32,000 nt of DNA from Candidatus Iainarchaeum sp. (GTDB lineage Archaea; Iainarchaeota; Iainarchaeia; Iainarchaeales; CSSED10-239), in NCBI GenBank assembly GCA_937968065.1, contig CALBUD010000033.1, forward strand, positions 632 to 32,631. The letters are read 5' to 3'. Of this stretch, positions 1-21,896 are shown piece by piece. The translations under genes were made by a program, and so were the position numbers. The stretch's first letter is position 1; each line of letters begins with the position of its first letter. Under the pieces are notes generated by a model that saw only the letters and a program-made list of their open reading frames with translations, did no database searches and was not told the DNA's origin.

Positions 1-3000
1 CATCTTAAAAGAGAAGTTGAATCAACTAAGGTGTTATCTGATGAATCTTTTAATCTATAATAAACATTTAAAGGATTTGTGTTTCTTGTTTCAACTTCCA
101 TTAAAACAGGAATTGCTTTACTTGGACTAAATATTAAATCAATTATGTTTTCTTGATATTTAACAGATAAAACATTTCCTCTACTTTCAATTGAAGAATT
201 AATCTTATAAATATCATTTGTTTTTGTAATATTTACTGTTCTTAAAGCGTTTGAACCATAATCAGGTGTTGTTACAACATTTTCTTCATCAATTCTTATA
301 GTATCTCCAGTATATGTAACTCCATACCCTTGTCTATTATACCCTGAAGTTGTTTGTCCTACAAAACCATTAAATGGAAGTCTATAAAAAACACTATCTG
401 TTTCTGGAGAAGAAATAAAACCAAAGGTTACAAATGCTTCAGCATCAATTTCTCCATTTCTTTCAAAATTCCAAGAACTATTTTCAAATAAGAAATCTAT
501 TTTTATTCTATATTTTCCTGGAACATTAATATTTACATTATTTGTTTCATCTGAATATTGTTTTATAAATAATAAATTATTTTTGAAAAGTTTAGATAAA
601 TAACCATTATTAAAGGTGGTTGGAGATGACATTATTGAAGAAGAACCTATTTGAGAACCATCTTCTCTTGAAGCAAGACCACCATATGCAGCATCAAAAT
701 CATTTATAAAATTATTATTATATTTATCTGTTATTAAATAAACTTCAAACTCTAAAAGTTCTTTTAATCTTAAAATATCTTGTTCTGTCCATTGAGAAAC
801 AACATTATCAGGATACATCTCTTTATTAAACCACATATCAAGATAACTAATTCCATTTTCTTTAACAGTTGTTGCTGGAACTAAACAATCAGAAGTTTGA
901 GATTGCTCATAAATATCAAGTGAAACTAAAGAACTAAAACTATTATTAAAAGGATCACTATCCTCTCCAGAATAGATGATTGATAAAGAAAGATTTTCTC
1001 CAAGGATTGGAGTTGTTTCATAAAATTCTAAAATAACTTCTGTTGTGGTATCTCCTGAAGTTTGTTTTAGTTCAATTGGTATACTTGAAAGATTTCCTGT
1101 AATTTCTGTTAATTCATCTGTTGAAAAATCTCTAACATATGCTTTCTTTGGTAGTTTATTATCAAGACTTGCTGCTAAGTTTCCATTTTTATTATTTCCT
1201 GTTCTATTATCTAAAGATATTTTAACAATTAATTTTTCTTCAGAAGTTAAAATACTTACTTGATCAATTCCTGTTCTTGAAGCTGAAACATTATAATCTG
1301 CATTATATGGTTGTGCATCTTTAATATAATATGAACCAATTAAAGATTGACTTGCTAAAGATTCTGAACTTATAGGACAAGAAACTGGTTTTGAAGCTAT
1401 TAGTTCTTGTGCTTTATTAATTCTATTTAAAACAACTTGTGTTAATTGAGTTGCATCACAATAGTTTTCAGAACATTTATCTATATCTTCTAAAGACCAA
1501 GACCAATCAAGAGAGATGTTTGGAACAGCACCCTCTCCAGTTTTTCCAATCTTTCCTGTGTCTGTAACACAATCAAGAAGAGTTAAATCATAGTTTGGAG
1601 TTTCTTCTGGTTTTGATATAAAATATGCAAATCTAAATTTTCCTATATTTTCTGTATTTTTAAAAGCAGGATCTTGCATATCTATAGAATCATCTAATGT
1701 TGGATTAAAATCTATTGTTTTAAAGAAATATTTTTTTGAATTATTATTTATTTGTGTATAAAAATCATCAGAAAGATTAAATTGTAAAGGTTTTATACCT
1801 GCTTGTTCAGGCCAGATAACTTCATCTGCTCTACAGGTATATCTAAAGTCTGTTTCAAGTTCTATTTTGTTTCTAGTTGGTTTTGAACCATAACACTCGA
1901 TTGTGTGTGAAAGTTTTCCATCTTCAATAATTGGTTCAAAGATACCACTACAGTTTTGGTTTTTAATTATTTGTGCATCAAACTTATCAAAAATAAATCC
2001 TGGTTGGTTACATAAAGTATAGTTTGATAAAGAAAGATTAGCATTCTTTGTAAGTTTATTTTTTGATGCAGGGTCTGTCATGGTTATAAGATCATGGTAG
2101 GTTATATATCTTGAACCTGTAATATCAAAAATATTTATATAAGAGGTGCTTTCTGAAACATCATTTATTTGTATAATCTTTGTTTTTTCATGATTTGGTT
2201 TTGTATGTTTTTGTTCAATATCTAAAAATCTATTAACTATTAAAGGATATTCAAACTCATTTTTCCAACTAGTTGCAGCCCAAGAAACTAAAGCCCCAAC
2301 TCCAATAGCTGCCCAACCATAAGGCCCAATTCCTGCAAGAGCTGTGTAGATGGCAGTTGAACCTAAAGCGGTTCCAGCTGTTCCTGCAGCTGCTGCAGCA
2401 GCTGCTGTTGCTGCACTAACACCAATAGCTCCACTATAAACACCAATTGCAAGTGTTGAGGTTGTTAAAATTCCTCCAACCCAAGGAACCCACCCAACAT
2501 CTTCATCAATAACTGTTATATATGAAAGATCTCCAAGAGCTTTAAAATTCATTTTTTTAAAAGATTCATCATTTCTATTAAAATTACTTGATAAATATTC
2601 TACAAAAGTTGAGTTTTCAGAAGAAACAGCATTAACTGTTCTATAAGATAGATCCTCTTGACTTGTAGGAATCTCTTTAACATAATCCCATGGATTTTTT
2701 TCTGTATTATTATTATATAATCTTTTTATTTCAGAAACTTTATTTTCAGAAATTTCAATAAATGGATCTTCCATCCATAAACCTGTTTCATCTTTTGCAT
2801 TTATTTTTAAGATTGAAAATGAAGAAGTTATTGTTCTTCCAAAATTATTTTTAACAGAAATTAAATTATTAAGATAATAAGCACCAGGTGCTGTTTTTGA
2901 ATCTTTTCTTTTTATAGAAACAGTTTTTTCAGAATCATTTAAAGAAAATCTTAAAATATTTCTTTCTTCAATTCCTTCTATGATTAAATCTCTACATCCA

Positions 3001-6000
3001 TAATCATCACCATCACAAAGATTCATCTCAAAGGTTGCTTTTCCAACACATTCGTTTTTAATAGTTAGTTCTTTAGAGGAAAGATTTTCTAAAACAAATA
3101 ATCCTCCTTGATTTATTTTTCTTCCAGAATCATAATAAGAGAAACAATCTGTAAGATTCATAACAGAGATATTTGTTTTTAATAATAAATCATTTGGTGA
3201 TTTATTAACATATACAGCTCCCTCTTCAGTTTCAACTTCAGCATTAAAATAAATATTTGTTTTAATATCTGCAAACTTTATACCATTGGTGTTATAAGTT
3301 ATCTCTAAGGTATACTCTTCTTCAGGTCTTATTTCACTTACAACTGTTCTATAGTAGTTTTCTGATAGTTGCACTTGATTTCCAGAACCTGGACCAATAA
3401 CTCTTAAGAAATAAACACCATATCTATCTGCTTCTGAAACTATTTTTGCTTGTAGATTTTTAATTGATATAGGAGTTCTTCCTTCTTTTGAAAGACATGT
3501 GTTTTTAATACTTAGAGAGGTTGTTTGACTTGTTGTTGAAACAACAGTTGTCCATTCTCCAAGACCACCAGTAACAACTAAACAATCATCTGCAAACACA
3601 CCTGTTCCAACAGATAATTTAAGATTTACTGGAATATTAAATAAATAATCATAGTTATTTAAAGAAACTGTTCCTGTTAAAGAACCTATGATATTCTCAC
3701 TAACAGGATGTGTTCTTGCACTCTCTGAGGGTGCAAACTTAACTGTCATTTCTCTTGTTTGGTTTGCAGGTATTGTAAATCCAGATTGTATCTGGTTATT
3801 TATATAATTTTTAGTTTGTGCAAGGTTTAATAAATAAGATTTATTAAAAGAAATATCAATATCATTTATTTCTTTTAAAGTTAATGGATATTCTGTTTTG
3901 TTTTCTAAAGTCAAAGTATATAACTCTCCATCAATATCGTTTTTATGAATAAATGCTTGAAGAGGAGAATCACTTGTTATTTTTTGAGAGTTGTGTAAAA
4001 TATCAATAATATCTTTTGTTACTGTAAACTCAACAGGCTCTGCATAATATTTAGATTTTGTAGCTTCAATTACAAAGGTTTCATTATTTCTTAAAGCAGG
4101 AAGAGAAATATTTGCTTTTCCTTCTCTGTTTGTTTTTCTACCTGTTGATATTGTTAAGTATTCATTATTTATTTTTTGTAAAACATTTATATTTGCACCT
4201 TCTATTAAACCTCCTTGACTATCTTTAACAATAACTGTTAAAATAAAAGGAACTGAAGGTATTATGTTTCTTGGTTCATAATCAATAACCATAGTGTCAA
4301 TCTCTGTTGTTGAAAAGTTAATAGGTAAGGTGTAGATAACTTCATTGTCAGAGACAAGTCTTGTGACTAATTTTGACTGTCCAAGAATTAATGGAAACAA
4401 TCCTAAATTAAAACCAATTTCTGAAAAAGGAGAAAGATTTTCTTTTAAAAGCTCTGGAGTGTTAAAAGGAATATTAAAATTATTTTCTCCAATTGGTGTT
4501 TCTCCAATAGATGAAAACTCACCAAAGATTTCATAATTTTTAATGTTTACCATAGATGTAGGATTATCATCTTTATTTAAGTTTTTAACAGAAAGTCTTG
4601 AAGATGGATAGTTGTTTGAAGAGGAGTTTGTGATTATATATTCAAGAATATAATCTGAGTTAACTTTTAAAGGTACAAGATTATTTTCTTTAATATCATA
4701 TCTTAACCCTTCTAAAACATCCACATACTGTCCTGAAAAACAAAAAGTATCATTACATAAACTTTTAGCATCCACAAAATACTGAAGTTGTGTAAAATTA
4801 TTTCCTAAAAGATTAATATTTCCTTGAGAGGATGCATAAAAGAAAGAAACAAGATCATTTGTTTTAGCATTCTTTATTCTTATAGGAATATATATCTCAT
4901 GTGTTGATGCTGGAAAATTATTTACTTGTATGTTTACAAGTTTTGATTCTAAAAAATTACCTGATTCTGTAAAAGGTTCTTTCTCATAATAGATAGAAGT
5001 TCCTAAAGTACTATTTTCAGGCATTATAAAAACAATATCTTCTTTAACATCTTCATAACTACCAGCTCTTAAAGCAAAATTAAAACCTGTTGAAGAGGGT
5101 GGCATAATAACTTTAAATCTTAAATAAAAGACTTCATTATTTTTTAAAGATTCAACCTTTTGTTCTAAAGCATTATAAAGACCAAGATATTCAACAACTG
5201 TATCTTGTGCTTGACTTGCTCTTTCTAAAACAATTTCTTTTGTAACAGTTTTGTTTTTATAGATTCTAAAAACATCTGTAAAATATGGAAGATAACCATC
5301 AGTTTCAATAAGAACATATACTCTCTTATCTGCTTTTATATCTTTAGATATTCGTCCAATATTTGTTGCAATATCAGTTCCAAGCAATTCACCTGATTCA
5401 GAATAAAAAGTAACTAATGAATTTGAAACAACATCATCTGTTTTATTTTTAATTGAAAGATTTACAGTTCCTTTTCCAATAACAACAGGTAAAGAAACAT
5501 TAGTATCTTCAGGTGGTAAGTTTCTATATTTTGAAGAAATTTCTTCAATATATAAGTTTTTAGTCTTAATTGTAAAATCAATTTCAGGAATATTTTCAAA
5601 AACAGCAACTCCGTTTTCATCAGAAACTGCATAAGAAAATAAAGGATTAATAAAATCAGCATCTCCATCATAAATCCAACTTTTAATACCAATGACAGGT
5701 TTTAAATCTTCATCAAAAATAGAAACATATATGTTTGAAACATTACTTGGTGTTATTTTTTCAAGATTAATATTATAAACTTCTAAACTAGAAGTTATTG
5801 GTATTATTTGTCCAAGATATCCTTCAGCAACAGCTTTTAGAGAATAGTTTTTATTTTTATCTATCTTAAAAATAAAACCATCTTGCTTTTCTCTTTCATC
5901 TATATTTTCAGTTCCATCTAAAAGTAAAGTTACAACAGGATATAAAGAATCTTCTAAAACCTCACCTGTATCTTTATCTTTTACAAAAACAGTAATCTCT

Positions 6001-7019
6001 CTAAGCTCTATAGCTTGATTAGTATCAGGATCTATTAAAGGATTAGAAGTGTTTTGCATATCAATAGTTAGTTCAGAAAGATAATTTTTAAAAACTTCAA
6101 CTTCTTTTTCAGATGCAAGATAATTATTCATAACATCTGTTGCTTTAACAATATATTCTCCAACAGGTATACTTGAAAAAGAACCTTGTGAATTATTTGT
6201 TTGTATTGTTCTAATTGAAGTTACAGGATCATCTTTTGAAAATAATCTTAATGTTATTGAATCATAAATATATTCTTCTCCAGAAACAACCAAAACATTA
6301 ATTGATCCAACATCTGTAACAGGACCTCTTGGTGTTAATTTTATTATTGAATCTGAAAGTTTAACAAGTAAATTTTTTTCATTATATTTATCACTTGAGA
6401 CATCAGCATACATCAGGTTACAAGAAGAAGGAATTTCTATTGCTAAAGAACCAGTTGATGTTTTTGTAAGAGAAGAGGTTACAACTTCTCTATTATCACA
6501 AACAATTGAAACTAAAAGTTCATCTGTTATTTTTTGATTTGTTAAAGTATCTTCAAAATAAATTGTTTTTTTAAAAGAACTTGGAACTTTTAAAACTGTT
6601 AATATAAAATTAAAAGTATTTCTATCAAAAACAATTTCTGTTTCAAAAAAATCATAACCTTCTTTTTCAACAATAACAGTATATAACTTTTTTTTATCAA
6701 GAGAAATTGTAAAAGAACCATTGTTATTTGTTGTATATGTGTTTGTGGTTCCATCTGATAAATTTCTTATCTTAAAATCAAAATTACTTAAGATGTTATC
6801 TTCATTATCAGCAAACCTAATAGTTATGCTTGTAAGATCTGCTTTTTTTCCAATAAAGGAATTTCCAAAAATAAAATAAAGAATAATTAAGAAAATTAAT
6901 AAAAATAAAAAAAAAGAAGTTAAAGCAAACTTTTTATCCAAAGGTGCAGTAATCTTTTTAATTGGGATTCTATCATCTACTTTTGTTAAAAAGTTTTGCC
7001 AAGATTCTTTAAAAGACAT
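1..7019 (-). CDS. Giant N-terminally anchored surface protein, paralog D. The N-terminus is in the window and the C-terminus runs off the left edge (at least 2339 codons).
   Basis: Absent from the ORF track. The minus strand has ATG at 7019..7017, preceded in frame by TAA at 7025..7023. I translated it continuously to the left edge (last full codon 5..3) without meeting a stop. It begins MSFKESWQNFLTKVDDRIPIKKITAPLDKKFALTSFFLFLLIFLIILYFIFG and the last readable residues are YYRLKDSSDNTLVDSTSLLR. The track appears to list only start-to-stop ORFs, and it lists no fragments in this frame. The module order matches the other giants. Confidence 0.9.
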   Translation of the reverse strand, partial: MSFKESWQNFLTKVDDRIPIKKITAPLDKKFALTSFFLFLLIFLIILYFIFGNSFIGKKADLTSITIRFADNEDNILSNFDFKIRNLSDGTTNTYTTNNNGSFTISLDKKKLYTVIVEKEGYDFFETEIVFDRNTFNFILTVLKVPSSFKKTIYFEDTLTNQKITDELLVSIVCDNREVVTSSLTKTSTGSLAIEIPSSCNLMYADVSSDKYNEKNLLVKLSDSIIKLTPRGPVTDVGSINVLVVSGEEYIYDSITLRLFSKDDPVTSIRTIQTNNSQGSFSSIPVGEYIVKATDVMNNYLASEKEVEVFKNYLSELTIDMQNTSNPLIDPDTNQAIELREITVFVKDKDTGEVLEDSLYPVVTLLLDGTENIDEREKQDGFIFKIDKNKNYSLKAVAEGYLGQIIPITSSLEVYNINLEKITPSNVSNIYVSIFDEDLKPVIGIKSWIYDGDADFINPLFSYAVSDENGVAVFENIPEIDFTIKTKNLYIEEISSKYRNLPPEDTNVSLPVVIGKGTVNLSIKNKTDDVVSNSLVTFYSESGELLGTDIATNIGRISKDIKADKRVYVLIETDGYLPYFTDVFRIYKNKTVTKEIVLERASQAQDTVVEYLGLYNALEQKVESLKNNEVFYLRFKVIMPPSSTGFNFALRAGSYEDVKEDIVFIMPENSTLGTSIYYEKEPFTESGNFLESKLVNIQVNNFPASTHEIYIPIRIKNAKTNDLVSFFYASSQGNINLLGNNFTQLQYFVDAKSLCNDTFCFSGQYVDVLEGLRYDIKENNLVPLKVNSDYILEYIITNSSSNNYPSSRLSVKNLNKDDNPTSMVNIKNYEIFGEFSSIGETPIGENNFNIPFNTPELLKENLSPFSEIGFNLGLFPLILGQSKLVTRLVSDNEVIYTLPINFSTTEIDTMVIDYEPRNIIPSVPFILTVIVKDSQGGLIEGANINVLQKINNEYLTISTGRKTNREGKANISLPALRNNETFVIEATKSKYYAEPVEFTVTKDIIDILHNSQKITSDSPLQAFIHKNDIDGELYTLTLENKTEYPLTLKEINDIDISFNKSYLLNLAQTKNYINNQIQSGFTIPANQTREMTVKFAPSESARTHPVSENIIGSLTGTVSLNNYDYLFNIPVNLKLSVGTGVFADDCLVVTGGLGEWTTVVSTTSQTTSLSIKNTCLSKEGRTPISIKNLQAKIVSEADRYGVYFLRVIGPGSGNQVQLSENYYRTVVSEIRPEEEYTLEITYNTNGIKFADIKTNIYFNAEVETEEGAVYVNKSPNDLLLKTNISVMNLTDCFSYYDSGRKINQGGLFVLENLSSKELTIKNECVGKATFEMNLCDGDDYGCRDLIIEGIEERNILRFSLNDSEKTVSIKRKDSKTAPGAYYLNNLISVKNNFGRTITSSFSILKINAKDETGLWMEDPFIEISENKVSEIKRLYNNNTEKNPWDYVKEIPTSQEDLSYRTVNAVSSENSTFVEYLSSNFNRNDESFKKMNFKALGDLSYITVIDEDVGWVPWVGGILTTSTLAIGVYSGAIGVSAATAAAAAAAGTAGTALGSTAIYTALAGIGPYGWAAIGVGALVSWAATSWKNEFEYPLIVNRFLDIEQKHTKPNHEKTKIIQINDVSESTSYINIFDITGSRYITYHDLITMTDPASKNKLTKNANLSLSNYTLCNQPGFIFDKFDAQIIKNQNCSGIFEPIIEDGKLSHTIECYGSKPTRNKIELETDFRYTCRADEVIWPEQAGIKPLQFNLSDDFYTQINNNSKKYFFKTIDFNPTLDDSIDMQDPAFKNTENIGKFRFAYFISKPEETPNYDLTLLDCVTDTGKIGKTGEGAVPNISLDWSWSLEDIDKCSENYCDATQLTQVVLNRINKAQELIASKPVSCPISSESLASQSLIGSYYIKDAQPYNADYNVSASRTGIDQVSILTSEEKLIVKISLDNRTGNNKNGNLAASLDNKLPKKAYVRDFSTDELTEITGNLSSIPIELKQTSGDTTTEVILEFYETTPILGENLSLSIIYSGEDSDPFNNSFSSLVSLDIYEQSQTSDCLVPATTVKENGISYLDMWFNKEMYPDNVVSQWTEQDILRLKELLEFEVYLITDKYNNNFINDFDAAYGGLASREDGSQIGSSSIMSSPTTFNNGYLSKLFKNNLLFIKQYSDETNNVNINVPGKYRIKIDFLFENSSWNFERNGEIDAEAFVTFGFISSPETDSVFYRLPFNGFVGQTTSGYNRQGYGVTYTGDTIRIDEENVVTTPDYGSNALRTVNITKTNDIYKINSSIESRGNVLSVKYQENIIDLIFSPSKAIPVLMEVETRNTNPLNVYYRLKDSSDNTLVDSTSLLR
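2266..2500 (-). other. Internal Gly/Ala-rich hydrophobic segment of about 78 aa (2-3 potential TM spans) in paralog D, about 1500 aa from the N-terminal anchor.
   Basis: My translation reads VGWVPWVGGILTTSTLAIGVYSGAIGVSAATAAAAAAAGTAGTALGSTAIYTALAGIGPYGWAAIGVGALVSWAATSW. The DNA here is a conspicuous GC-rich island of gct/gca codons in an otherwise AT-rich gene. Confidence 0.75.
5225..6850 (-). other. Array of about 6 prealbumin/CarboxypepD_reg-like repeats in paralog D.
   Basis: From my translation, examples are ITIRFADNEDNILSNFDFKIRNLSDGTTNTYTTNNNGSFTISLDKKKLYTVIVEKEGYDFF and ITVFVKDKDTGEVLEDSLYPVVTLLLDG...KNKNYSLKAVAEGYLG. Boundaries are approximate. Confidence 0.55.
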
Positions 7020-7030
7020 GTTTTATACTT

Positions 7031-7041: not shown

Positions 7042-9930
7042 TTAGTTAACAATACATGCTCCTCTAGATGCAACCCATGCATTTTGATTTTCAGAAGCCA
7101 TCTCTCCTCCAAAGAAAGGTTTGTAAACTTCTACAGGATTATAATATACTTTTAATGAACTTCCAGAATAACTTATACATGCTTGTTTATCTTTAACAAG
7201 AGAAAAGATTTCACTTACATATCTTATATCTTGTCCAAATACATTGTTAAGTTCAACTGTTTTAGAACCATTGTTATTTAAAGTATAAAACATAGCATCA
7301 TCATCAAATGCTTCTTGATGTAAAACACTAATTCCTTGTCCTGTTCTAAAATTACTTGGTGTATAAAAGATTGTTCTTAAGAAAACATTTCCTCTTCTTG
7401 TAATATTTCTCTCTTCCCATTCAACACCATATGAAACTGTTTGACTTGGTGTTACTGGTGCAAGTCTTGAAGAGATTGCATGAATATCTGGTCTTCCATT
7501 AAATGCTTCAAGAACAGAAATTCCTGAAAAGTCAAGACATTCTCCAATACCTGTCCATGGAACTAAGGTTCCTGAGGTTAATGCTGGTTCTCCTCCAAGG
7601 TTTTGTGGTCCACCAATATCAAGCTTATAGAAACTATAAGCATTGTTTGCTTGATTTGAAACTTTTAAACCAACTGGTGTTGCTCTTGAAGGTATAAAGT
7701 AAAGCTCTGGATTTGTTTTTGTTGCTGAAAGATTAATGTTAAGAAGCATACCTCTAGTATCTCCATTATTTAAGAAAGAAAACTCATTAGGTTGTTTTCC
7801 GTATTCTTTAACAGTTACTGTATTAATTGTATTTGATTGAGTAAAAGGTTCTGTTCTTAAATATTGATTTGTTGAAAGTTGATCAATAGTTACAATATCT
7901 CCAACAAAGTCAATACCATATCCTTGTCTTGCATTTTCAGAATCATATCCTACAAGACCATTAAATGGCATATAGTAAAGAGGAGAATCTCTTTCAGGTG
8001 CTTGTTCTCTTGAAAGAACTATATCAACTTTTCCTGTAATGTTTCCTGTTGTTTGATCAAATAAATTCCATTGATCATCAAATTCAACATCAATTAAAAC
8101 ATTATATCTTCCAGGGCTTTGAAGTACAAGTCTTCCTGGTTCTGAATCAAAGGTTGAAAGGAAATTAAATTTATCTGAAACAACATACTTATGATATTTG
8201 TTTAGATAATCTGTTGGTGCTGCTGTTATTGTAAATCTATAATATCTATCAAAATCTTGTTTAAAGTCATCTGAATAACCATCTTTCATTAAATAAGATC
8301 TAAACTCATAAAATGAAGTGTTTAATTTTACATTTCTTGAATAAAGATTTATATTTCTTGAATTTTTAGAAATATCACAAACTTCTGAGTTTGGTGTGAA
8401 TATATTTTCTAAAAAGTTATCAGAATCAATATCTAAATCTCTATATGCTTCTTCAAGTCTTAAAACAGCAGTAACTTTAAAGAGAGTTTCATCATCAAAG
8501 ATAACACCAACATCAAATTCTTCTTCTCCTTGATAAGCATTATCTACAAAGTCAGATATTTTTAATTGTATTATTTTTTCTTCAATTTCTACATTGTCTT
8601 TATAAACTGTTAGATAAAGCTCTCCATAATCTGCTAAAACTGGTTCGTTTTCTGGAATATTAAATGAACCTTCTATTCTATAATCTACATTTACAAATCT
8701 ATCTTCATAACTTGAATTTAAAACAGTTATTCCAAGATTATTATTTTGTGAAACTAAACTTTGAGTAACTCCTGGTGTTGGACAAGTAAATGAAGATTTA
8801 TTTGCTTGAACAAATGAATCAATCTCTCTAAGTTTATTTAAAACTTCAATTGTAAATTGTGTAGAATCACAATAAATATATGGTTTGTTATCTTGTCCTG
8901 TAAGATCAGCATCACACCAATTTCCTGTGTTTACTTGCATTCCCGAAATTGTTGAAACTTGTCCTGATTGAGAGAATGTCCAATCAAGAGCGATGTGTGG
9001 CAGAGCTTCAGAACCTGTGTTTCCTAGAATCATACCGTTATCTGCAATACAGTTAACCATATCAAGTTCTAGAGAATCTTCTATTTGATCTCTAACATAA
9101 GAGTTAAAAACTAATCTAAATTGTTCTGTTTTTATGTCTGTTGATTTATTATCATTTATTTTTTTTATAAGTTCTTTGTTTGTTCCATCTAAAAATCTAC
9201 TAATCTTTATAAAGTTTGCACCTGTTGTGAATGGTACAAAGATTATTGATGCCCAATTCATATTAAAAATATCTGAAAATGAAAGTTCATAATCAACATT
9301 TTGTGTGTATGTTGAGATTGGATATTTTACTAAAAAGTTTCTATATTCATATTGATGTTCTATAGTTCCTTTTGTATCTTCAAATAAAATTTCTCTTTTT
9401 TGTACAGATACAGGTTCATTATTTGTATCAAAGACTTTTACAAGATTTGTTCTTTCTGCAAGTCTAAATGTTGGTGAATTTTGACCATTATCAATTTCTG
9501 AAAAATTTCTAATATTTATAAATCTTGCATCTAAAACATTTTTATCTGTTAAAAGCATGTTATCAAATAAAACTTCTTGAGTGATTTTATTATTTGTTAA
9601 ATGAGTATCATAAGGTGTAAAATAATCTTGATCTTCTTGAGAGATGTTAACTTTATCTCTATCTAAAGCATAATCAATTTCAACTTTTGAAAGTTTTGAA
9701 AAAGTATTTATTGCTGAAATAGTTCCCATTAAAGCTCCATGAATGATTGGGTTAAGTCCAAAAACATTTGTTAATATTTTTTGTCCTCCATCAATTGCCC
9801 ATTCAACAACTGCTTTTTTGCCTGTTTCTGTTGCTGCATTTTGAATCTCGTTTGCAGAAATTGGAGCTACAAAAGATAGCATAAAAAGGGCTATAAGGAT
9901 TATTCCAAAAATTTTATTTATATTTTTCAT
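7042..9930 (-). CDS. Secreted 962-aa protein with a Sec-type signal peptide. It is a stand-alone homolog of the C-terminal module of the giant paralogs.
   Basis: Complete ORF, ATG at 9930 and TAA at 7042. The N-terminus MKNINKIFGIILIALFMLSFVAPISA/NE has n-, h- and c-regions. GGTG lies 8 nt upstream of the ATG. By-eye alignment to paralog D includes PGRYNVLIDVEF/PGKYRIKIDFLF, SPLYYMPFNGLVGY..RQGYGIDFVGDIVTID/SVFYRLPFNGFVGQ..RQGYGVTYTGDTIRID and ALDWTFS..YCDSTQF/SLDWSWS..YCDATQL. Confidence 0.93.
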   Translation of the reverse strand: MKNINKIFGIILIALFMLSFVAPISANEIQNAATETGKKAVVEWAIDGGQKILTNVFGLNPIIHGALMGTISAINTFSKLSKVEIDYALDRDKVNISQEDQDYFTPYDTHLTNNKITQEVLFDNMLLTDKNVLDARFINIRNFSEIDNGQNSPTFRLAERTNLVKVFDTNNEPVSVQKREILFEDTKGTIEHQYEYRNFLVKYPISTYTQNVDYELSFSDIFNMNWASIIFVPFTTGANFIKISRFLDGTNKELIKKINDNKSTDIKTEQFRLVFNSYVRDQIEDSLELDMVNCIADNGMILGNTGSEALPHIALDWTFSQSGQVSTISGMQVNTGNWCDADLTGQDNKPYIYCDSTQFTIEVLNKLREIDSFVQANKSSFTCPTPGVTQSLVSQNNNLGITVLNSSYEDRFVNVDYRIEGSFNIPENEPVLADYGELYLTVYKDNVEIEEKIIQLKISDFVDNAYQGEEEFDVGVIFDDETLFKVTAVLRLEEAYRDLDIDSDNFLENIFTPNSEVCDISKNSRNINLYSRNVKLNTSFYEFRSYLMKDGYSDDFKQDFDRYYRFTITAAPTDYLNKYHKYVVSDKFNFLSTFDSEPGRLVLQSPGRYNVLIDVEFDDQWNLFDQTTGNITGKVDIVLSREQAPERDSPLYYMPFNGLVGYDSENARQGYGIDFVGDIVTIDQLSTNQYLRTEPFTQSNTINTVTVKEYGKQPNEFSFLNNGDTRGMLLNINLSATKTNPELYFIPSRATPVGLKVSNQANNAYSFYKLDIGGPQNLGGEPALTSGTLVPWTGIGECLDFSGISVLEAFNGRPDIHAISSRLAPVTPSQTVSYGVEWEERNITRRGNVFLRTIFYTPSNFRTGQGISVLHQEAFDDDAMFYTLNNNGSKTVELNNVFGQDIRYVSEIFSLVKDKQACISYSGSSLKVYYNPVEVYKPFFGGEMASENQNAWVASRGACIVN
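9853..9930 (-). other. Sec-type signal peptide of the 962-aa protein, predicted cleavage after ISA.
   Basis: MKNINK forms the n-region, IFGIILIALFMLSFVAP the h-region and ISA the c-region, followed by NEIQ. Confidence 0.75.
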
Positions 9931-9942: not shown

Positions 9943-10013
9943 TTTTTTTTAAATAAATTTTAAAATATTTATTCTTTTAATTTTTCACACTCATTTTTTT
10001 TTAATTTTTCATC

Positions 10014-13000
10014 TTAAGAAGTTTCATCTTCAGAAGTTTCATCTTCAGGAGTTTCATCCTCAGGAGTTTCATCGTCAGGAGTTTCATCGTCAGGAGTTTC
10101 ATCCTCAGGAGTAGCATTCAAAGAATTATACTCAGATCTCTTAAGTTCTTCTTCAAGAGCTTTATTTGCTTCTTTAATTGCTTTTGCATCATCTCCATCT
10201 TTTGCAGTCTTTACTCTATCAACTAAAGTATTTAAAACATTTTTTCTTGTATCTGAAAGTCCATCAATTGTAAGTGCTCTTTCAGCTTTATCTAAAAGCT
10301 CTGTTGAAGACTCAAGTTGTTTATTAAGATTTGCTCCAAATAACTTTCCTTGTAAAATACCAGAGATAACACCTGTGTAAAGTCCATCTCTAAAGAAAGA
10401 TGCTGCAGCTAACTTCCATTTTGCATCATTTCTTACAGTAAACTGACCATAAACCTCTTGACCATAACAAAGATTAATAATATTTGTAACATCATATGAA
10501 GATGCAGGTAAAGTTAATCCTGTATTTTCAGAATATTCAGATCTATACAAATCAAACTCATATCTTTCAAGATCTATACAATAATCTGTAGGTCTTACAT
10601 ATGCTTTTATTTGTTTAATTGGTCTTTCTGTTTGTCTTGAAACATCCATTTCAGAATAAACATTTAAGATGTATGCTCCAGGAATAGCACCCATGTTTCT
10701 TACAATGATAGGATCACTTGTCCCTGTACTTGAAACCTCTATGTTGTTTCTAGGTTCAATTACAAGACCTGCACAATCATCACAAGAGATTCTATAAACA
10801 GTATCTATTGGACATCCTTTATTTTCAATAGTAAATTCATCAACACCTTGTCCAACATTTAAGGTACTTTTTGAAAACACAACACAATCTCTTAAATTTG
10901 TAACATCAATCTCAAAATTAAACTCTGATAAGATTTCTTGCTCTCCAGTTCCAGTACTGTTTAAAGATCTAAATTGTATCTTTCCAGTAACTTTTCCTTT
11001 CATTCTTCCAACAGGTTCATATCTTAAGATTATAGGATAACTTCTATCTCTATCAACTGTGCTTAAAAGATTTCTATAGTTTCCATGTGTAAGTTCAATA
11101 AATTTATTATCAATTGTTATTAAGAATTTTCCTTGAGGATTAGAGTCAAATACAACTCTTGCATCAAGTCCATTTGAAAGTGGCATTCTTGTGTTATTTA
11201 TAGAACAATTATTTGTAATCATAAATTGTGTTTCAACAGGATTATTTAAAGAAATTTCTTTCCAAAATCCATCAGATAAAGAAAGACAATTTGAATTTTG
11301 AAGCATACCATCAAATCCAACATTTACTCTTATTGGAAGTTCTGTAACCCAACTTGAGTTTCCACTTTTTAAAACTATTTTTAAAGTAGCTGAAAGATTT
11401 TGTAATTCTCTAATAGCTTCAGATCTTGGATTAAGACTTATAGTTAATGGTATTTGTTTTGAAGAATCTGTATTATCAGGAACTTCTGAAATTGTATCAA
11501 GTCCTTTAATAACAATTCCTGCACTATTTAAAAGATCATTATTAATTCTTAAAATATCAATTATTTCAAGACCAGTTCCTTTAACCTCTAAACTCTCAAT
11601 TGTTAGATCTATTGGAGATATATTATTTATTGTAAAGGTTTCTGTTCTTTGTTTTTCTTCAAAGACATTTAAAGAGTATGCTAAAGTTCTAGGAGTAATT
11701 GTAAATAATCTATCTGTTGTTGTAATTTCTTTTATTAATGTTTCATATTCAGGAGCAGTTATATAGATATATACTTTATCATTAACTGCTTGTGCTGGAA
11801 TATTTGAAATTGTAATTTCTCCTGTTATTGGCATGTTTACAGGACCTCTAATAGTATCTTTAAATTTATCTTTAATTGTAACTGTTGTATCTTTAACTGG
11901 AAGTTTTGTTTGGAAATCTTTTGCTTTAACAACTAAATCAAAGTTTTTACCAGAAGGTATGATTTGTGGTTCAACTGAAACTTCAAATGTTTTTTCAGAA
12001 GCAACTTCAATAAATAATTGATTTACAAACCTAGTTCTTTGATCAGAAATAAATCTGATTGAAAGATTTCTAGTACCCTTCAACTTAGGTGTGAAAACAA
12101 CCTCACCTGTAACTTTTTGTCTTGAAGTAAGTTCTGATATTGGTATATCAAATCTATACTCACTAGGATTATTTTGTAAGAAAACCTCACCATTTGGTTT
12201 TACAATTCTTATACTTTTTATATCAAGACCTTCATCAAGATTTTCTAAAATAAATCTTGAAGTTATATATCTAGTTTCATTACTGTTGTTTATTAAAGTA
12301 AATGAATATTTATAATCTTTATTTGGTTTTGCACCAAAGTTATCTGAAACATCATATCTTAAATCTTCAGAAATATCTATGATGGTTGAAGTTAAACAAA
12401 AGTCAGTTGAACAGAAAAGTTCATCTCCAACTCCATAAGTATCTGTGTTATAAACATCATAATATTCAATTAAATTATTTTCACCAAAATATGGATTAAA
12501 AGTTTCATAAGCTCCTTCTTTTGTAAGACCATAACCTAAAGAAAATAATTTTAATTCCTCTCCAAACACAGCTGTATCTTTAACAGATATTATTGCTGAA
12601 ACTTCATAAACATTATAGTATCCTAAAGGACCAGTAACTTCTAAAGGACCTTGTTTTAAAGTTGCTTTTGCCCATTTAAAATCACTTTCAGTTAAACTAT
12701 CAGCATCATATCTTCCTTCTGTTTCATGAGGAGGGGTCATATTAAATTGTGTATATTTTTGTATGCTATCAAGATATGGTACATCTAAATATTTTATAAA
12801 CAAAGCATCATTTTCAATCATTGATGTTGAGCCTGTTCTTAAAATAAAACCAATCTCTTCAAACACATCATTTCCAGTTCTGTTTTGTGGAACTGATAAA
12901 TAATATCTAACTTCATAATCTTCTCCAGCCTTAAGATTATCTTTAATCTCAAGACCATCTCTAAAGATTCCAATTTTTTCAATTCTTGGTTTTGTTAAAG

Positions 13001-14825
13001 CACTATTAAAATTAAATAAAGTAACTTCAAGTTCTGTTACAACATCTCTTGAAAGTCTTACAAATCTTGATTGTGTTTTTCCAAAGTCTCCATCAATTAA
13101 TGGAGAGGCAACAACATAATAATCAACATCTGCATCTAAATTAAATTCAACTCTTCCATCTGAGTCAGTATCAATACTTCTTATAGGTATTGCTGGAAAG
13201 TTACTATAATAGCTATATCTATCATAAAGATCTACTCTTGCATAAGATACTGGATTTTTTTCTTTATCTATAACTCTTACACTTAAAGTTCCTTCACTTA
13301 TACCCATTGGAAGAATAACTGTTCCTGTAGCTTCAGGGAATTTTACATTAAATTCAAATTCAATTTCTTCTGAAACATTATTTCCTTTTACAGCTTTTGC
13401 AATATATCTTCCAGAAGAGATATTATAAACAGCATTTCCATCATAGTTTGTAACAACTGGTTTATAATCTGATAAAAAGCCTGTATCTGCATCATATAAG
13501 ATTACTTTTGCAAACTTATATCCTCTACCATCCCAACCTAAAACTCTTACATTTAATGGTGCTAAAGTTTCAGGAGTTATAACTCTTAAGTTTATAAGTG
13601 TAGGGTTTGTTGGCATAGTTTCTATTGCTTTTATAAGTTTTCTTTCTATTAAATAACCTTCAGCATCAACAACAACATTATAATCTTTAATTTCTGGAAC
13701 TGTGAAAATAACAAAACCATTTACATCTGAAAGTTTTGTTTGAAGTGTTTCGTTAATTGCATTTTTAAGACTAACTTCTGCATCTTCAACAACTCTGTTT
13801 CCTTGTCCAAGAATCTTTACATAAATATATCCTGAAACATCTGAAGATAAAACCACATTCTTTGTTAAATTTTCTGTAACAAATAACATTTCTGTTTTTG
13901 AAGAGTATAAAGGAACACTTCTCATATCTGTGTAAGTTACAGTGTAATCTCCTTTTACAACATCTAAGATATTACAAGTACCTGCAGTTGAGGTAAGACA
14001 AGAATCTACAAGCCCATAACTATTTGATAAAGCAACTTTTATGTTTGATAAAGGTTCATTTGAAGAATTTTTAATATTGAAAGAAAGATTATAACTTCCA
14101 GGAGGACCAAAATCAATATCATCTTGTTGTAATTCTATTTTTAATGTTCCATTTGTTATTGCTACATTATATCTTGATAAATATCCATTAAAACTAATAG
14201 AATCAATCATTAATTGACAAGCTGGATTTGCATCAACAGTAACATTTCCATTTGATAGGCTTTGACTATTTGGTGCTAAAACATTATTTAAACATTTATA
14301 ACTAATATTTCCATTTCTGTTAATAACTTCACCTGTCTGAGCATCAACCACACTAAAAGTATATCTTACTGTTGGTGGAGTTACGCTAATTGGTTCTAAA
14401 GCAATTGTTATGGTTTCTGATATTTCTTGTGAGAAATAAAAATTTTCATATTCTTGATAACCGTCTTTCTGTATTTTAACTTCATAAGAGGAATTTCTCG
14501 GAACTTTTATTTTTTCTGTAAGTCCAGAGGAATCTGTAAGATAGGTTGAGATTCCTTGAGTTGTGGTAACCATAACAGAAGTATCTTCTAAAAAGGCACC
14601 ACTCTCTGCATCAATCACCTTAAACTGAATATCTATAGTGTTTGCAGTTCCTTTTGGAAGCAATAATAACACTATTCCAGCAATTATAATTAATATTAAA
14701 AGAATAAATAAAATAAATGAAGGCATCACCTTATCTATTTTATCAGTGATCTTATAAAGACCAGTTCTTTCAACAAAATTATAGTATCTATCTTCTAGAT
14801 TATAGTAAAGTTTTTTAAGTCCCAT
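10014..14825 (-). CDS. Giant N-terminally anchored surface protein, paralog C (1603 aa), with a coiled-coil and acidic repeat tail.
   Basis: Complete ORF, ATG at 14825 and TAA at 10014. AGAGGT lies 8 nt upstream of the ATG. The leader is MGLKKLYYNLEDRYYNFVERTGLYKITDKIDKV, followed by the TM helix MPSFILFILLILIIIAGIVLLLL. About six 85-aa repeats of V-x-D...G..Y.....GY type follow, then Cys-bracketed modules such as TFTINNISPIDLTI and EFTIENKGCPIDTV. An ORF this long is very unlikely by chance in AT-rich DNA. Confidence 0.95.
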   Translation of the reverse strand: MGLKKLYYNLEDRYYNFVERTGLYKITDKIDKVMPSFILFILLILIIIAGIVLLLLPKGTANTIDIQFKVIDAESGAFLEDTSVMVTTTQGISTYLTDSSGLTEKIKVPRNSSYEVKIQKDGYQEYENFYFSQEISETITIALEPISVTPPTVRYTFSVVDAQTGEVINRNGNISYKCLNNVLAPNSQSLSNGNVTVDANPACQLMIDSISFNGYLSRYNVAITNGTLKIELQQDDIDFGPPGSYNLSFNIKNSSNEPLSNIKVALSNSYGLVDSCLTSTAGTCNILDVVKGDYTVTYTDMRSVPLYSSKTEMLFVTENLTKNVVLSSDVSGYIYVKILGQGNRVVEDAEVSLKNAINETLQTKLSDVNGFVIFTVPEIKDYNVVVDAEGYLIERKLIKAIETMPTNPTLINLRVITPETLAPLNVRVLGWDGRGYKFAKVILYDADTGFLSDYKPVVTNYDGNAVYNISSGRYIAKAVKGNNVSEEIEFEFNVKFPEATGTVILPMGISEGTLSVRVIDKEKNPVSYARVDLYDRYSYYSNFPAIPIRSIDTDSDGRVEFNLDADVDYYVVASPLIDGDFGKTQSRFVRLSRDVVTELEVTLFNFNSALTKPRIEKIGIFRDGLEIKDNLKAGEDYEVRYYLSVPQNRTGNDVFEEIGFILRTGSTSMIENDALFIKYLDVPYLDSIQKYTQFNMTPPHETEGRYDADSLTESDFKWAKATLKQGPLEVTGPLGYYNVYEVSAIISVKDTAVFGEELKLFSLGYGLTKEGAYETFNPYFGENNLIEYYDVYNTDTYGVGDELFCSTDFCLTSTIIDISEDLRYDVSDNFGAKPNKDYKYSFTLINNSNETRYITSRFILENLDEGLDIKSIRIVKPNGEVFLQNNPSEYRFDIPISELTSRQKVTGEVVFTPKLKGTRNLSIRFISDQRTRFVNQLFIEVASEKTFEVSVEPQIIPSGKNFDLVVKAKDFQTKLPVKDTTVTIKDKFKDTIRGPVNMPITGEITISNIPAQAVNDKVYIYITAPEYETLIKEITTTDRLFTITPRTLAYSLNVFEEKQRTETFTINNISPIDLTIESLEVKGTGLEIIDILRINNDLLNSAGIVIKGLDTISEVPDNTDSSKQIPLTISLNPRSEAIRELQNLSATLKIVLKSGNSSWVTELPIRVNVGFDGMLQNSNCLSLSDGFWKEISLNNPVETQFMITNNCSINNTRMPLSNGLDARVVFDSNPQGKFLITIDNKFIELTHGNYRNLLSTVDRDRSYPIILRYEPVGRMKGKVTGKIQFRSLNSTGTGEQEILSEFNFEIDVTNLRDCVVFSKSTLNVGQGVDEFTIENKGCPIDTVYRISCDDCAGLVIEPRNNIEVSSTGTSDPIIVRNMGAIPGAYILNVYSEMDVSRQTERPIKQIKAYVRPTDYCIDLERYEFDLYRSEYSENTGLTLPASSYDVTNIINLCYGQEVYGQFTVRNDAKWKLAAASFFRDGLYTGVISGILQGKLFGANLNKQLESSTELLDKAERALTIDGLSDTRKNVLNTLVDRVKTAKDGDDAKAIKEANKALEEELKRSEYNSLNATPEDETPDDETPDDETPEDETPEDETSEDETS
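10017..10109 (-). repeat. Six tandem copies of a 15-bp unit, in frame, encoding the acidic tail (P[ED]DET)n at the extreme C-terminus of paralog C.
   Basis: The plus strand reads agaagtttcatcttc agaagtttcatcttc aggagtttcatcctc aggagtttcatcgtc aggagtttcatcgtc aggagtttcatcctc. The protein tail is PEDETPDDETPDDETPEDETPEDETSEDETS followed by the stop. Confidence 0.95.
13020..14650 (-). other. Array of about 6 prealbumin/CarboxypepD_reg-like repeats in paralog C.
   Basis: Examples are IDIQFKVIDAESGAFLEDTSVMVTTTQGISTYLTDSSGLTEKIKVPRNSSYEVKIQKDGYQEY and LSVRVIDKEKNPVSYARVDLYDRY...TDSDGRVEFNLDADVDYYVVAS. Boundaries are approximate. Confidence 0.6.
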
Positions 14826-14854: not shown

Positions 14855-17800
14855 TTATTTAAATTTACTTGGATTGTGCCATAACTTAATTATAGAATCC
14901 TCTATTTTTAAACAAACATTTTCATTATTTATTTGTTCGAAAACATCTTTCATGGTTTTATATGAAATGTTTGGTGACATGTTATTCATTAACACATTGT
15001 ATATTTTAAAGTTGTTATCTACTTCATTTAGGATTGAAAACACACTCATGTTTTTAATATTTGTTATTTGTGGGTTTGAATAGATTGCAAAGTTTGAAGT
15101 TGTATCTTTAAGTAAGAATAAATTCTTACCAGAATAACTTCCAACATCTACATTTCCAGTTGCAGTATTTACAAGCTTACCAGAATAATTTTCATTAAAG
15201 TAGATTGGTCTTGAATCAATGAATCTATAGTTTGCCATATTTTCTAATGTAAAAATATATCCTTTCTGTATCTCTGCCCAATCATTTACAGTGTATGTTG
15301 TTTTAGTATACTCAGGAAGGAAAGGTGCATTTAAAGAATTATTTGTTTGTGCAAACAATGGATTTATTGGATTAAAGAATAAAGGATTTTTAGAATATTC
15401 TTCATCTAAGTCATTTACTTTATCTCCAATCTTTATACTTAAATCATTTCCATTCTTTTTTAAAATAATTAAATATTCTCCTGGAGAAGAAACATTTGTG
15501 TTTTCTGTATAAGTGTAATTATAATCATTAAAAAGACTTCTTGAAGTTTTATAACTTTTTAAAATATTTGTATTATATGGTTCATTAGTATTTGAAAACT
15601 TCTTTAATTTTGAAACAAATAAATTTGGAGAATCTCCAATAAACACTTCCATGTTTAAATAAAACTCTATTTTTTGTGCATTTGTCAAATCATCATACTT
15701 AAAAGTTTCTAAGAAATATTCAACACTCATATAATGATTTCCTCCAAGCATTATTAGTGTATCAGGTATTACAGAAATTCCTGTAACTTTTGTTTTAATA
15801 ATTGTTATCTCTCTTAAATGTTTTGGAACCTTTTCAAGAATATCTTTTGCTTGTTTTATGTATGTTTCAAGTGTCTCTTTTTCATCAAATTCATTACATT
15901 CAACACAAAGATCAAGTACAGCATCTGATTTCTTAATACTTTCACCATCTTTATAAAATAATATTTCTCCAAGTTTTACTTTATCTTGAGTATTTTCTAA
16001 AGAATCTGCTTTCTTTTTTAAATAATCATAGAATTGTTCTTGATCACAATAATATTCTTCACAAGAAGTCTCTGTTATCTTATTTGAATCATATTCAAAT
16101 AATATTTGATCAAATCCTAAAAGTTCATAATTTTCTTTTCCTGTAACTCCATCTTTTGAAGTTAAGGTAGGATCATAACAACTTAGATCTAAAGCTTCAG
16201 TTGTTACTGGTTTTGGAACACTTCCATCATCACAAACCCCTTGAACAGGTGACTTTCCATCATCACAAACTTCTTGTACAGAAACACCTGAAATTGGATT
16301 GGTTTCAATTCTTGTATCCACACCAATCAAAGTATGTCCTTGAAGAACTGATTGTTGAGTGTTTGGATTTATTTGCATAATTGTAAAATTTATTCCTTCT
16401 TTTGTATTTTTATCTTTAAAGAAATCATAAATCTCTAATTTATTATTTTCGCGTCTATCATTATCAATAGTTTCAATTGGTCTTTCAAAACATAATTTAA
16501 AATAATGTTTTTTAATAAACTCAATACTTACCTTTAAAGGAGAAGTATAACTTTCATCAAGATAGAAAAGACCTAAATCTTGTATGTGTGAAGTTTCATT
16601 AATTCCATTTATAGGGAAGTCTTTTACCATACCCATAAAACATCTTTGAGCTGTTTCTTCTAAATCAACTCTTCTAAATTTATTTTTTGTTAAAGCATCT
16701 TCAGGAACTTTAATAAACACAATGTTTCTTCCATCTCTTTGTATTTCTAAATCATATGTTAATTTGACAGAAGTATCCACAAATAATAATTCATCTGCTG
16801 TAAAAATACTATAATTTAAATCTTTTCCTAAAAACTCTTTAATAATCTCCCAGTTATCTCTATTATCTAAGATAAGCCATTGGAAATTATCTTTAAGTTC
16901 CATACCAACATTATGGTAGACTAATGAAGACATACCGTGTGGAGGTTGAAGACCAACTTGCAGCACAAACTTTAAGTTAACCTCATCTTCTACATCTATA
17001 AGCATTCTTCTAAAAGTTGAAATCACTCCTGCTGCAATTGAATTTTGACCATATTTATTCATGTATGCTTTTGCAGAAGAAGTATTTTTAATCTCAGGAT
17101 TTCTTCTTAAAGCTATATCCCATACTTCTATAGGTTTGTTTGTTTGAAGATCTGTTAAATAATCAACCTTTATAGGTTGTATTCTTCCTTGCATATCTCC
17201 AACATTTAAGAAAGAAACACCATCAAAATCAAGTGAAGTTAAATCTAAATAATTAACTTCAACAAGTCTGTATCCTTGATCAAAACAAGTGTTCATAACT
17301 TTTACTAATTGATACTTAGGATCAAAAATATTTGAAAAATCTAATTTTTGTGGAGTTACTTGTATACATTTTGAAGGCATAAAACTTAATGGTAAAGTTA
17401 CATTTACAGGAACCTCTCCAACAAGAGAATAAACATTTTCAGAAGCAAGAGAAGGTTTTGCTGTAACTGGAACTCTAAAAGTTCCCATTTCTTCTGCACC
17501 TGTAACTAAGACTTGTGTGCTTTGATTTGGTTCTAAAGTAAATTCTTTATCTGAAGAGACTACAACTCCATAGTTTTGTTCAAGTTTAATATCAACTGCT
17601 TCTAGACAATTGTTTGTAACTGTAAATGGTCTTACAGGACAGTTCATACTATTTGTAAAACCCATACCTCCATAACCACCTTGCATATAAGGATCCATGA
17701 AGTTATAATAATTATAATTACTATATTGATTTTGGTATTGTGAAGTTGGATAATTATAAGGATAAACAGTTGAAGCTTGTTGTCCAAAATATCCTGTTTG

Positions 17801-21880: not shown

Positions 21881-21896
21881 CAAATCACATTCTCTC

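Follow-up and report, generated by a model that had tools for sequence, protein, structure and literature searches.

Giant surface proteins have been described in several prokaryotes, and those closest to the gene considered here belong to the archaeon Candidatus Forterrea multitransposorum, whose genome paper (PMC5905446) treats them in one sentence and a cartoon and suggests a function in cell-cell interaction. The paper describes no domain architecture, no family corresponding to the C-terminal module (C-module) discussed below, no internal hydrophobic segment and no function test. Here a 32,000-nucleotide (nt) stretch of DNA from Candidatus Iainarchaeum sp. (contig CALBUD010000033.1, positions 632 to 32,631; hereafter the window) was analysed, with emphasis on its left end, where a gene designated G1 runs on the minus strand from position 7019 to the window edge. 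G1 is a further member of the Forterrea-type giant protein family, already known but uncharacterised, with which it shares direct orthology, neighbour order, and a leader and anchor; it is a real and intact gene, likely for a giant cell-surface protein that serves cell contact or the envelope.

Other systems invite comparison. The SPEARE proteins of Nanohaloarchaeota are giant (3,000-8,500 amino acids, aa), mostly extracytoplasmic and membrane-anchored, occupy several percent of a tiny genome and have been proposed to act in host interaction; they have serine protease, laminin-G and type III restriction-enzyme domains as well as a C-terminal part that is conserved and cytoplasmic (Hamm et al. 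2019, PNAS, PMC6642349). G1 resembles them only in size, DPANN origin and proposed role, since none of the SPEARE domains (serine protease, laminin-G, type III restriction endonuclease) was found in it with Pfam or NCBIfam, and its predicted cytoplasmic part, in contrast to the conserved C-terminal one of SPEARE, is a 30-residue N-terminal leader only. Apilactobacillus kunkeei is reported to have five consecutive genes (Giant1-5) for extracellular proteins of 3,000-8,000 aa, which take up 6% of a 1.5-Mb genome (PMC12863079). The gene cluster of the window is similar in organisation only, namely tandem paralogous giant surface-protein genes that fill about 5% of a small symbiont genome, the Giant proteins being bacterial and of unrelated families. 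Fibrillar adhesins such as Bap, SdrD and PitA are, like G1, very long, with beta-sandwich stalk domains and a distinct terminal globular region, and repeated stalk domains are also found in G1, where CarboxypepD_reg and SpaA score above the Pfam cutoff and Big_1 below it. G1 differs from these adhesins in being archaeal rather than bacterial, in its internal hydrophobic segment, and in its anchor, which is an N-terminal transmembrane helix preceded by a putative cytoplasmic leader, with no LPxTG motif, instead of LPXTG/sortase, a type I secretion system or an autotransporter; moreover, no recognised adhesive domain was found in it by Pfam or by fold search. Such a domain and a wall or outer-membrane anchor are two of the features that define fibrillar adhesins.

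A giant gene truncated by the window edge

For positions 1..7020 the open reading frame (ORF) lister gives just three ORFs that reach 60 aa (72, 63 and 76 aa), as the initial annotation had pointed out, and by its own description it leaves out ORFs that run off an end, which accounts for the apparent 7-kb gap. Translation of the reverse complement of 3..7019 gave 2,339 codons and a product beginning MSFKESWQNF, in agreement with the minus-strand frame that the same annotation had drawn from the ATG at 7019 to the left edge; no in-frame stop lies between 7016 and 3. The G+C content of the window is 27.5% and, at the base composition of its minus strand, stops are expected with a probability of 0.0898 per codon, which puts the chance of 2,339 stop-free codons at about 10^-95.6 and bears out the remark that the frame is unusually long for AT-rich DNA. 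The remaining five frames of 1..7019 have 85-338 stops each, the longest open run being 89 codons. Within 3..7019 the G+C content of the minus strand falls from 38% at the first codon position to 34% at the second and 9% at the third, and the skew between the first and the third is a coding signature. The start codon, the ATG at 7017..7019 (minus strand), was assigned from the translation and the upstream sequence and is the earliest possible one, because an in-frame TAA (7025..7023, minus strand) precedes it by two codons; a purine-rich AAAGGAAAG stretch is located about 8-16 nt upstream, and the ATG follows the stop codon of the upstream 962-aa gene, G2, by 22 nt.

A public protein search retrieved a protein of 2,492 aa (P0001), encoded on a single 32,631-nt contig in NCBI/ENA, which is 100% identical to G1 across all 2,339 residues. 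The window (3..7019, minus strand) thus holds codons 1-2339 of 2,492, or the first 94% of the gene, the assignment being supported by the absence of stops, by this identity and by collinear orthologues. The part of G1 to the left of the window comprises 153 codons and the stop, or 462 nt, and the two bases that the window still holds beyond codon 2339, minus-strand 'tg', agree with the next P0001 codon, W2340. P0001 ends in ...SDSLRCD, and because its orthologues end alike (...SDSLECS, ...NALECS, ...DALKCN), this C-terminus is the natural one. An exact 47-mer taken from the left window edge had no match in the JGI metagenome collection. The proposal of a giant gene cut by the left window edge is therefore correct, and the expected product of roughly 2500 aa or more was close to the mark in size, the 'or more' not being needed; the extension of about 200 aa that had been extrapolated from the 962-aa paralogue was too long, with only 153 aa of P0001 missing from the window.

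Seven further proteins of 2,392-2,487 aa are collinear with P0001 over the whole length at 34-60% identity, the closest orthologues of G1 being about 60% identical; counts given below out of eight refer to the set of eight collinear orthologues. More relatives, of 2,438-2,525 aa, appeared in the C-module profile search of cluster representatives. A scan of one genome per GTDB species for the leader pattern (W/Y)QN(F/I)L..(I/V)(D/N).RIPIK.IT.PLDKK followed by one transmembrane helix, both of which G1 carries at aa 7-53, identified eight loci, all in Iainarchaeota-type metagenome-assembled genomes, among them Ca. Forterrea multitransposorum (CP045477.1), whose genome is complete at 839,632 bp, and a Ca. 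Iainarchaeum contig of 671 kb. The G1 orthologue of Forterrea (locus L004), an organism different from that of the window, is a collinear protein of 2,466 aa with 54-55% identity to G1.

Gene order is kept in three other genomes (loci L001, L002 and L004, the last being that of Ca. Forterrea multitransposorum), where the products measure, in aa, about 2,320 / 1,704-1,926 / 964-973 / 2,426-2,487 (G1) / 120-125 / 805-816 / 2,129-2,148 / 120-123; for Forterrea itself the order is 1,867 / 964 / 2,466 / 120 / 809 / 2,147 / 123. The window reads G6 (2,677 aa), G5 (558), G4 (2,342), G3 (1,603), G2 (962) and G1, all on the minus strand and separated from one another by 22-204 nt, and it matches L001, L002 and L004 in having a G3-like and then a G2-like gene directly upstream of G1. 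Six genes, G1 among them, are closely packed in one orientation within a conserved cluster of about 42 kb, which makes up about 5% of a tiny DPANN genome. By length and collinearity, leader and neighbourhood, G1 is an orthologue of the 2,466-aa Forterrea protein, and the protein lengths and their order show that the region mentioned in the Forterrea paper is the same cluster as that of the window. A literature search returned no characterisation of the G1 family beyond that mention (PMC5905446); the family is widespread, noted once in the literature and otherwise uncharacterised.

Positions 3..7019 of the minus strand thus hold a real gene that is truncated by the left edge. The alternative, that the open frame is a chance ORF, a decaying pseudogene or an assembly chimera, has as its sole support the location of the stop codon outside the window, and its probability is negligible: a chance of about 1e-96 and a strong codon-position bias speak against it, as do full-length collinear orthologues (2,426-2,525 aa, 33-63% identity) from independent assemblies and different sites, which also share 17 invariant cysteines and a conserved C-terminus. 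The open frame, the codon bias, the identical full-length protein and the collinear orthologues together refute it. The '7-kb gap' arises from the way in which ORFs were listed, and the window of 32 kb is in its entirety a single block of genes for giant surface proteins.

Architecture of the predicted protein

It is very probable that G1 is built from a leader, an anchor, about 1,450 aa of beta-sandwich domains, a 78-residue hydrophobic segment and a C-module of about 900 aa. The leader (aa 1-30, MSFKESWQNFLTKVDDRIPIKKITAPLDKK; 6930..7019, minus strand), which was delimited by conservation and paralogue comparison, is rich in Lys and Arg, and aa 1-50 form the best-conserved 50-residue block of the protein among orthologues (74%). 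The transmembrane anchor that follows (aa 31-53; 6861..6929, minus strand) has a Kyte-Doolittle 19-residue mean of 2.88. According to the positive-inside rule the N-terminus should be cytoplasmic, so that the leader would lie inside and the remainder of G1 outside the cell. The same design, with the pattern aromatic-x-x-L ... IP(I/L)xK(I/L)xxP(L/I)(D/E)KK..P(S/T)F and then a helix, is common to G1, G3, G4, G6 and distant relatives. The initial annotation had ascribed to G1 the family's leader, anchor and module order; leader and anchor indeed recur in the neighbours of 1,603, 2,342 and 2,677 aa, while the C-module is detectably shared with the 962-aa gene only. Across most paralogues the family module order holds for the N-terminal half (N-half) only, the C-module being undetected in the 2,342- and 2,677-aa genes.

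The predicted extracellular beta-sandwich region, of about 1,400 aa (2670..6842, minus strand), was defined by Pfam matches, paralogue alignment and invariant Cys pairs, and corresponds to a diverged stretch of immunoglobulin (Ig)-, prealbumin- and CarboxypepD_reg-like character at about aa 60-1450. Pfam places in it, on the minus strand, a CarboxypepD_reg domain at aa 71-127 (6639-6809; E 1.6e-11, above cutoff), a SpaA/prealbumin-like domain at aa 256-320 (6060-6254; above cutoff) and a Big_1 domain at aa 926-987 (4059-4244; below cutoff). G1 aa 93-1384 aligns with G3 aa 93-1388 at 23% identity, and G1 aa 18-1177 with G4 at 24%. Internal repeats were not detected in G1 by self-BLAST; profile comparison with hhalign gave weak repeat signals (P 0.004-0.02) at about aa 62-150, 161-227, 245-330, 314-425, 428-546, 518-604 and 926-1010. 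The whole N-half may be a chain of beta-sandwiches of about 100 aa each that would reach some tens of nanometres. G1 has 22 cysteines, all of them outside the leader and the helix and on either side of the hydrophobic segment; 17 are invariant in all eight orthologues, the other five are kept in six or seven, and they occur in apparent pairs.

Hydropathy and composition delineate an internal uncharged, Gly/Ala-rich hydrophobic segment at aa 1508-1586 (2262..2498, minus strand), with 78 residues without D, E, K or R, 43% Ala+Gly, 17 small-xxx-small motifs and two peaks of hydropathy that reach about 1.5. No other part of G1 is so poorly conserved (13-29% identity), and the segment varies in sequence and length among orthologues, which are also variable at aa 1451-1700 and 1901-2000. 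A hydrophobic peak shortly before the C-module, often much stronger than in G1 (up to 2.9), is present in 80 of 110 long relatives, and the free-standing C-module relatives begin with a signal peptide. In a sub-branch of relatives the segment is flanked by CxW...DPC and has CPPC/CPxC at its centre, a pattern suggestive of a hairpin whose two ends lie on the same side. A strict regular expression for this Cys-staple matched 10 of 109 long relatives and none in the G1 subgroup, and hence supports a hairpin for a sub-branch only. For G1 itself, conserved cysteines on either side of the segment would place both large parts outside the cell, so that the segment is more probably a hairpin or a surface-associated, peripheral element than a single membrane crossing. 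Among distant relatives, CPPC, CPVC or CVPC was observed mid-segment in P0053, P0060, P0066, P0068, P0071 and P0126, four of which (P0053, P0066, P0071 and P0126) also have the conserved flanks CxW(E/D)EA... and ...(D/E)DPC; such a motif could be the turn of a membrane hairpin, a redox site or a metal site.

The window contains the first 753 residues of the C-module, which has about 906 residues (aa 1587-2492; 3..2261, minus strand) and was recognised by homology to G2 and by its conserved cysteines. It aligns with the free-standing G2 at 25% identity over about 890 residues (aa 1590-2492), an independent pairwise G1-G2 match giving 28% identity (E 4e-22), and G1 aa 1586-2339 matches positions 2-753 of the C-module profile with a score of 1139.8, which is partly by construction, G1 being in the profile. 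The invariant core (D..F..FD, PG.Y, Y..PF.G.VG, RQGYG, GSN, RG, W.G.G, LRT..Y.P and a C-terminal C...N) is kept, column by column, across other members. When 1.84 billion cluster representatives were searched exhaustively with the C-module profile and HMMER, 665 proteins matched at E<=1e-3 and 402 reached E<=1e-30; these are representatives of clusters at 50% identity, so the family comprises at least 665 clusters (the exhaustive search was used for the counts, a word-indexed profile search having given only 2 matches). Most C-modules form the C-terminal part of proteins of 2,300-2,650 aa with an N-terminal helix, and a minority are separate proteins of about 1,000 aa.

No Pfam family was found on G1 aa 1,000-2,492, 48 C-module members scanned against Pfam had only isolated matches here and there, none of them consistent, NCBIfam had no match to the C-module, and profile searches of all PDB sequences returned 0 matches. 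Structure models and fold searches covered the C-module from aa 1,590 on. A first AlphaFold2 model made with 8 sequences had a predicted local distance difference test score (pLDDT) of 64 and a predicted template modelling score (pTM) of 0.42, and its fold search was uninformative; with 48 sequences the model was confident for residues 230-903 (mean pLDDT 76, pTM 0.66, most blocks above 85) and is beta-rich, with few helices and one Ig-like insert. Foldseek comparison of this model with the PDB and with BFVD (viral predictions) gave only generic beta-sandwich or lectin-like partial matches. The best was the BSP domain of Bap (E 2.6e-4, template modelling (TM) score 0.12-0.17), and the weak best matches as a group, which also include SdrD, PitA and FnBPA, are adhesins; their TM-scores of only 0.1-0.2 give no evidence of homology. 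Neither a specific lectin or adhesin domain nor a fusogen or pore-former fold (viral classes I-III, fusexins, pore-forming toxins) was found for the C-module in these two collections. By sequence and by fold, as compared with the PDB and BFVD, the C-module is a large orphan family.

Scans of G1 for thioester CxEQ, HExxH, GxSxG, RGD, LPxTG and Ca-binding motifs were all negative, there is no histidine after residue 1705, and Asp, Arg, Tyr, Trp and Gly positions are invariant in the C-module. The lack of catalytic motifs and of late histidines, combined with these invariant residues, is more easily reconciled with a binding or structural head than with an enzyme, and such a head is what the C-module probably is. 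Two other assignments were rejected: an alpha-2-macroglobulin-like identity, given that there is no C.EQ motif and that MG4 scored 18.8 bits against a cutoff of 24.7, and a C-module common to all paralogues, the C-terminal halves of G4 and G6 reaching hhalign probabilities of only 20% and 6%.

Possible roles: cell contact, envelope or host membrane

On the preferred reading, G1 would be displayed at the cell surface and only its leader of 30 residues would remain inside, where a partner in the cytoplasm, be it insertion machinery or a scaffold, might recognise this conserved element. With its paralogues it would make up a large assembly at the cell surface, whose task would be either contact with other cells, presumably the host, or construction of the cell envelope. 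The C-module would act as a binding head and not as an enzyme, and the G3+G2 pair would be a split version of the G1 design in which N-half and C-module act together. A Rosetta-stone argument points the same way, since the two halves exist as separate adjacent genes; the arrangement, G3 directly followed by G2, is kept in L001, L002 and L004, and suggests either that a G1-type gene was split long ago into this pair or that G1 arose by fusion of the two. A cell-contact role as such, as judged from sequence features, has an even chance of being correct. Ca. Forterrea is without lipid and nucleotide synthesis and was predicted to be host-dependent (PMC5905446), which makes the suggested cell-cell interaction plausible, this being plausibility and not evidence.

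Several observations weigh against this reading. The stop codon of G1 is known through the deposited protein P0001 and not as DNA. The hydrophobic segment is absent from two of the eight orthologues (the natural forms P0004 and P0007) and so is not strictly required; beta-sandwich repeats are supported up to about aa 1,010, with weak internal repeat signals; and N-glycosylation sequons are not significantly enriched (46 against 37.6 +/- 5.4). The functional interpretation itself is drawn from the architecture and one sentence of a genome paper.

The main rival explanation, which appears unlikely, is that the cluster constitutes the cell envelope itself, made of S-layer-like or canopy proteins with a structural duty and no specific role in host contact. 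G1 would then be held in its own membrane by both the N-terminal helix and the hydrophobic hairpin, with the 1,450-aa beta-sandwich region forming an arch between them; a hydrophobic element or a signal peptide directly before the C-module does suggest that this module lies at the cell's own membrane, and the sharing of one anchor by several paralogues is what a multi-component envelope would present. The cluster is also conserved in every Iainarchaeota genome recovered. However, no archaeal S-layer domain family was found in G1 with Pfam or NCBIfam. S-layers normally use one or two abundant proteins, and six or more distinct giant proteins would be unusual for such a layer; the variable regions (aa 1451-1700 and 1901-2000) fit an interaction surface equally well.

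It could also be imagined that G1 engages the membrane of a host, its hairpin inserting into the partner membrane like a fusion loop or the hairpin of a pore-former, while the helix stays in the DPANN cell, the stalk spans the intercellular gap and the C-module binds the partner surface; the device would help to form the cytoplasmic bridges or pores by which DPANN archaea are thought to obtain metabolites. The 78 uncharged residues with their Ala+Gly content (43%) and 17 small-xxx-small motifs are compatible with this, as are the hydrophobic element in 80 of 110 long relatives and the host dependence predicted for Ca. Forterrea, which is without lipid and nucleotide synthesis (PMC5905446), and in a subset the CxW ... 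DPC flanks with a CPPC/CPxC centre are consistent with a stapled hairpin. Nevertheless, this explanation is very improbable: the hairpin is the least conserved part of G1 and is missing from two of eight orthologues, its hydropathy is only moderate (about 1.5), and the C-module model has no fold similarity to viral or cellular fusion or pore-forming proteins in the PDB or BFVD. It seems quite improbable, on these sequence features, that the hairpin is the working part of a new archaeal intercellular connector and enters the membrane of the host, whose surface the C-module would hold. If it were so, a molecule could be named for the first time as a candidate agent by which Iainarchaeota-type DPANN archaea breach their hosts or fuse with them, and G3 with G2 would amount to the device in two chains.

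DPANN archaea, small as their genomes are, devote about 5% of them to this giant-gene cluster, which may bear on host attachment and resource uptake. What is new is a defined family architecture and the recognition of the C-module as a family of at least 665 clusters with no Pfam entry or structural relative (PDB, BFVD). The natural split into G3 and G2 and the hairpin-less variants could serve as natural experiments, and the family provides a testable handle on DPANN cell-surface biology.

The neighbouring genes

G2 (962 aa; 7042..9930, minus strand) was resolved by alignment into a signal peptide, a conserved Gly-rich amphipathic stretch and a free-standing C-module. G3 (1,603 aa; 10014..14825, minus strand) is, also by alignment, paralogous to the N-half of G1 and begins with the same leader and anchor. 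At its end a 15-nt tandem repeat (7.1 copies, 94% matches; window positions 10007-10112) encodes an acidic (E/D)(E/D)TP C-terminal tail, ...ETPDDETPDDETPEDETPEDETSEDETS; with 1,603 aa against 1,704-1,926 aa in its orthologues and a different C-terminus, this gene end appears evolutionarily unstable.

G4 (about 2,341 aa; 14855..21880, minus strand) aligns with the same leader, anchor and beta-sandwich N-half, its C-terminal half not being detectably a C-module. The ORF lister starts it at a TTG (LMGLRSFYY...; 21878-21883), and the next codon is an ATG that would give MGLRSFYY; as this matches MGLKKLYY of G3 and MGLKE... of distant relatives, the start is probably at 21880. An ORF of 115 aa beginning with GTG (18246-18593, plus strand) lies antisense within G4 and is most likely spurious, because the window codes uniformly on the minus strand.

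G5 (558 aa; 22088..23764, minus strand) starts with MFNQKGFNLFTAMIALMLVSITIVFIY, a type IV pilin-like (class III signal peptide-like) N-terminus for which it is unusually large; no Pfam or NCBIfam match was found for it. G6 (2,677 aa; 23901..31934, minus strand), the first cluster gene in the window, has a related leader and anchor with CarboxypepD_reg and MG3-like domains. It contains an internal hydrophobic segment at aa 2161-2210 (25305-25454, minus strand) that is Cys/Gly-rich (ACALCSIGVNAGLSLIPIIGQIALFKGIVFDCGVFACGIPAAGIMMNVMT) and lies about 470 aa before the C-terminus; this segment may correspond to the G1 hairpin, the C-terminal part of G6 itself not being detectably related to that of G1.

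Downstream of the G1 orthologues in L001 (17538-27170) and L004 (19509-29138) the cluster runs on with four genes, counterparts of which would fall beyond the left edge of the window. They encode, in order, a secreted protein of 120 aa, a Cys-rich secreted protein of about 805 aa, a protein of about 2,148 aa whose N-terminal 110 residues or so are Lys/Glu-rich and without a transmembrane helix, and a multi-helix membrane protein of 123 aa. A distant C-module member from a groundwater metagenome (L011) is likewise found among giant paralogues (2,627, 1,540, 2,335 and 2,419 aa), and between the giant genes of that cluster lies a DDE_3/HTH_32 transposase gene (7953-8969), which recalls the description of the Forterrea genome as transposon-rich (PMC5905446).

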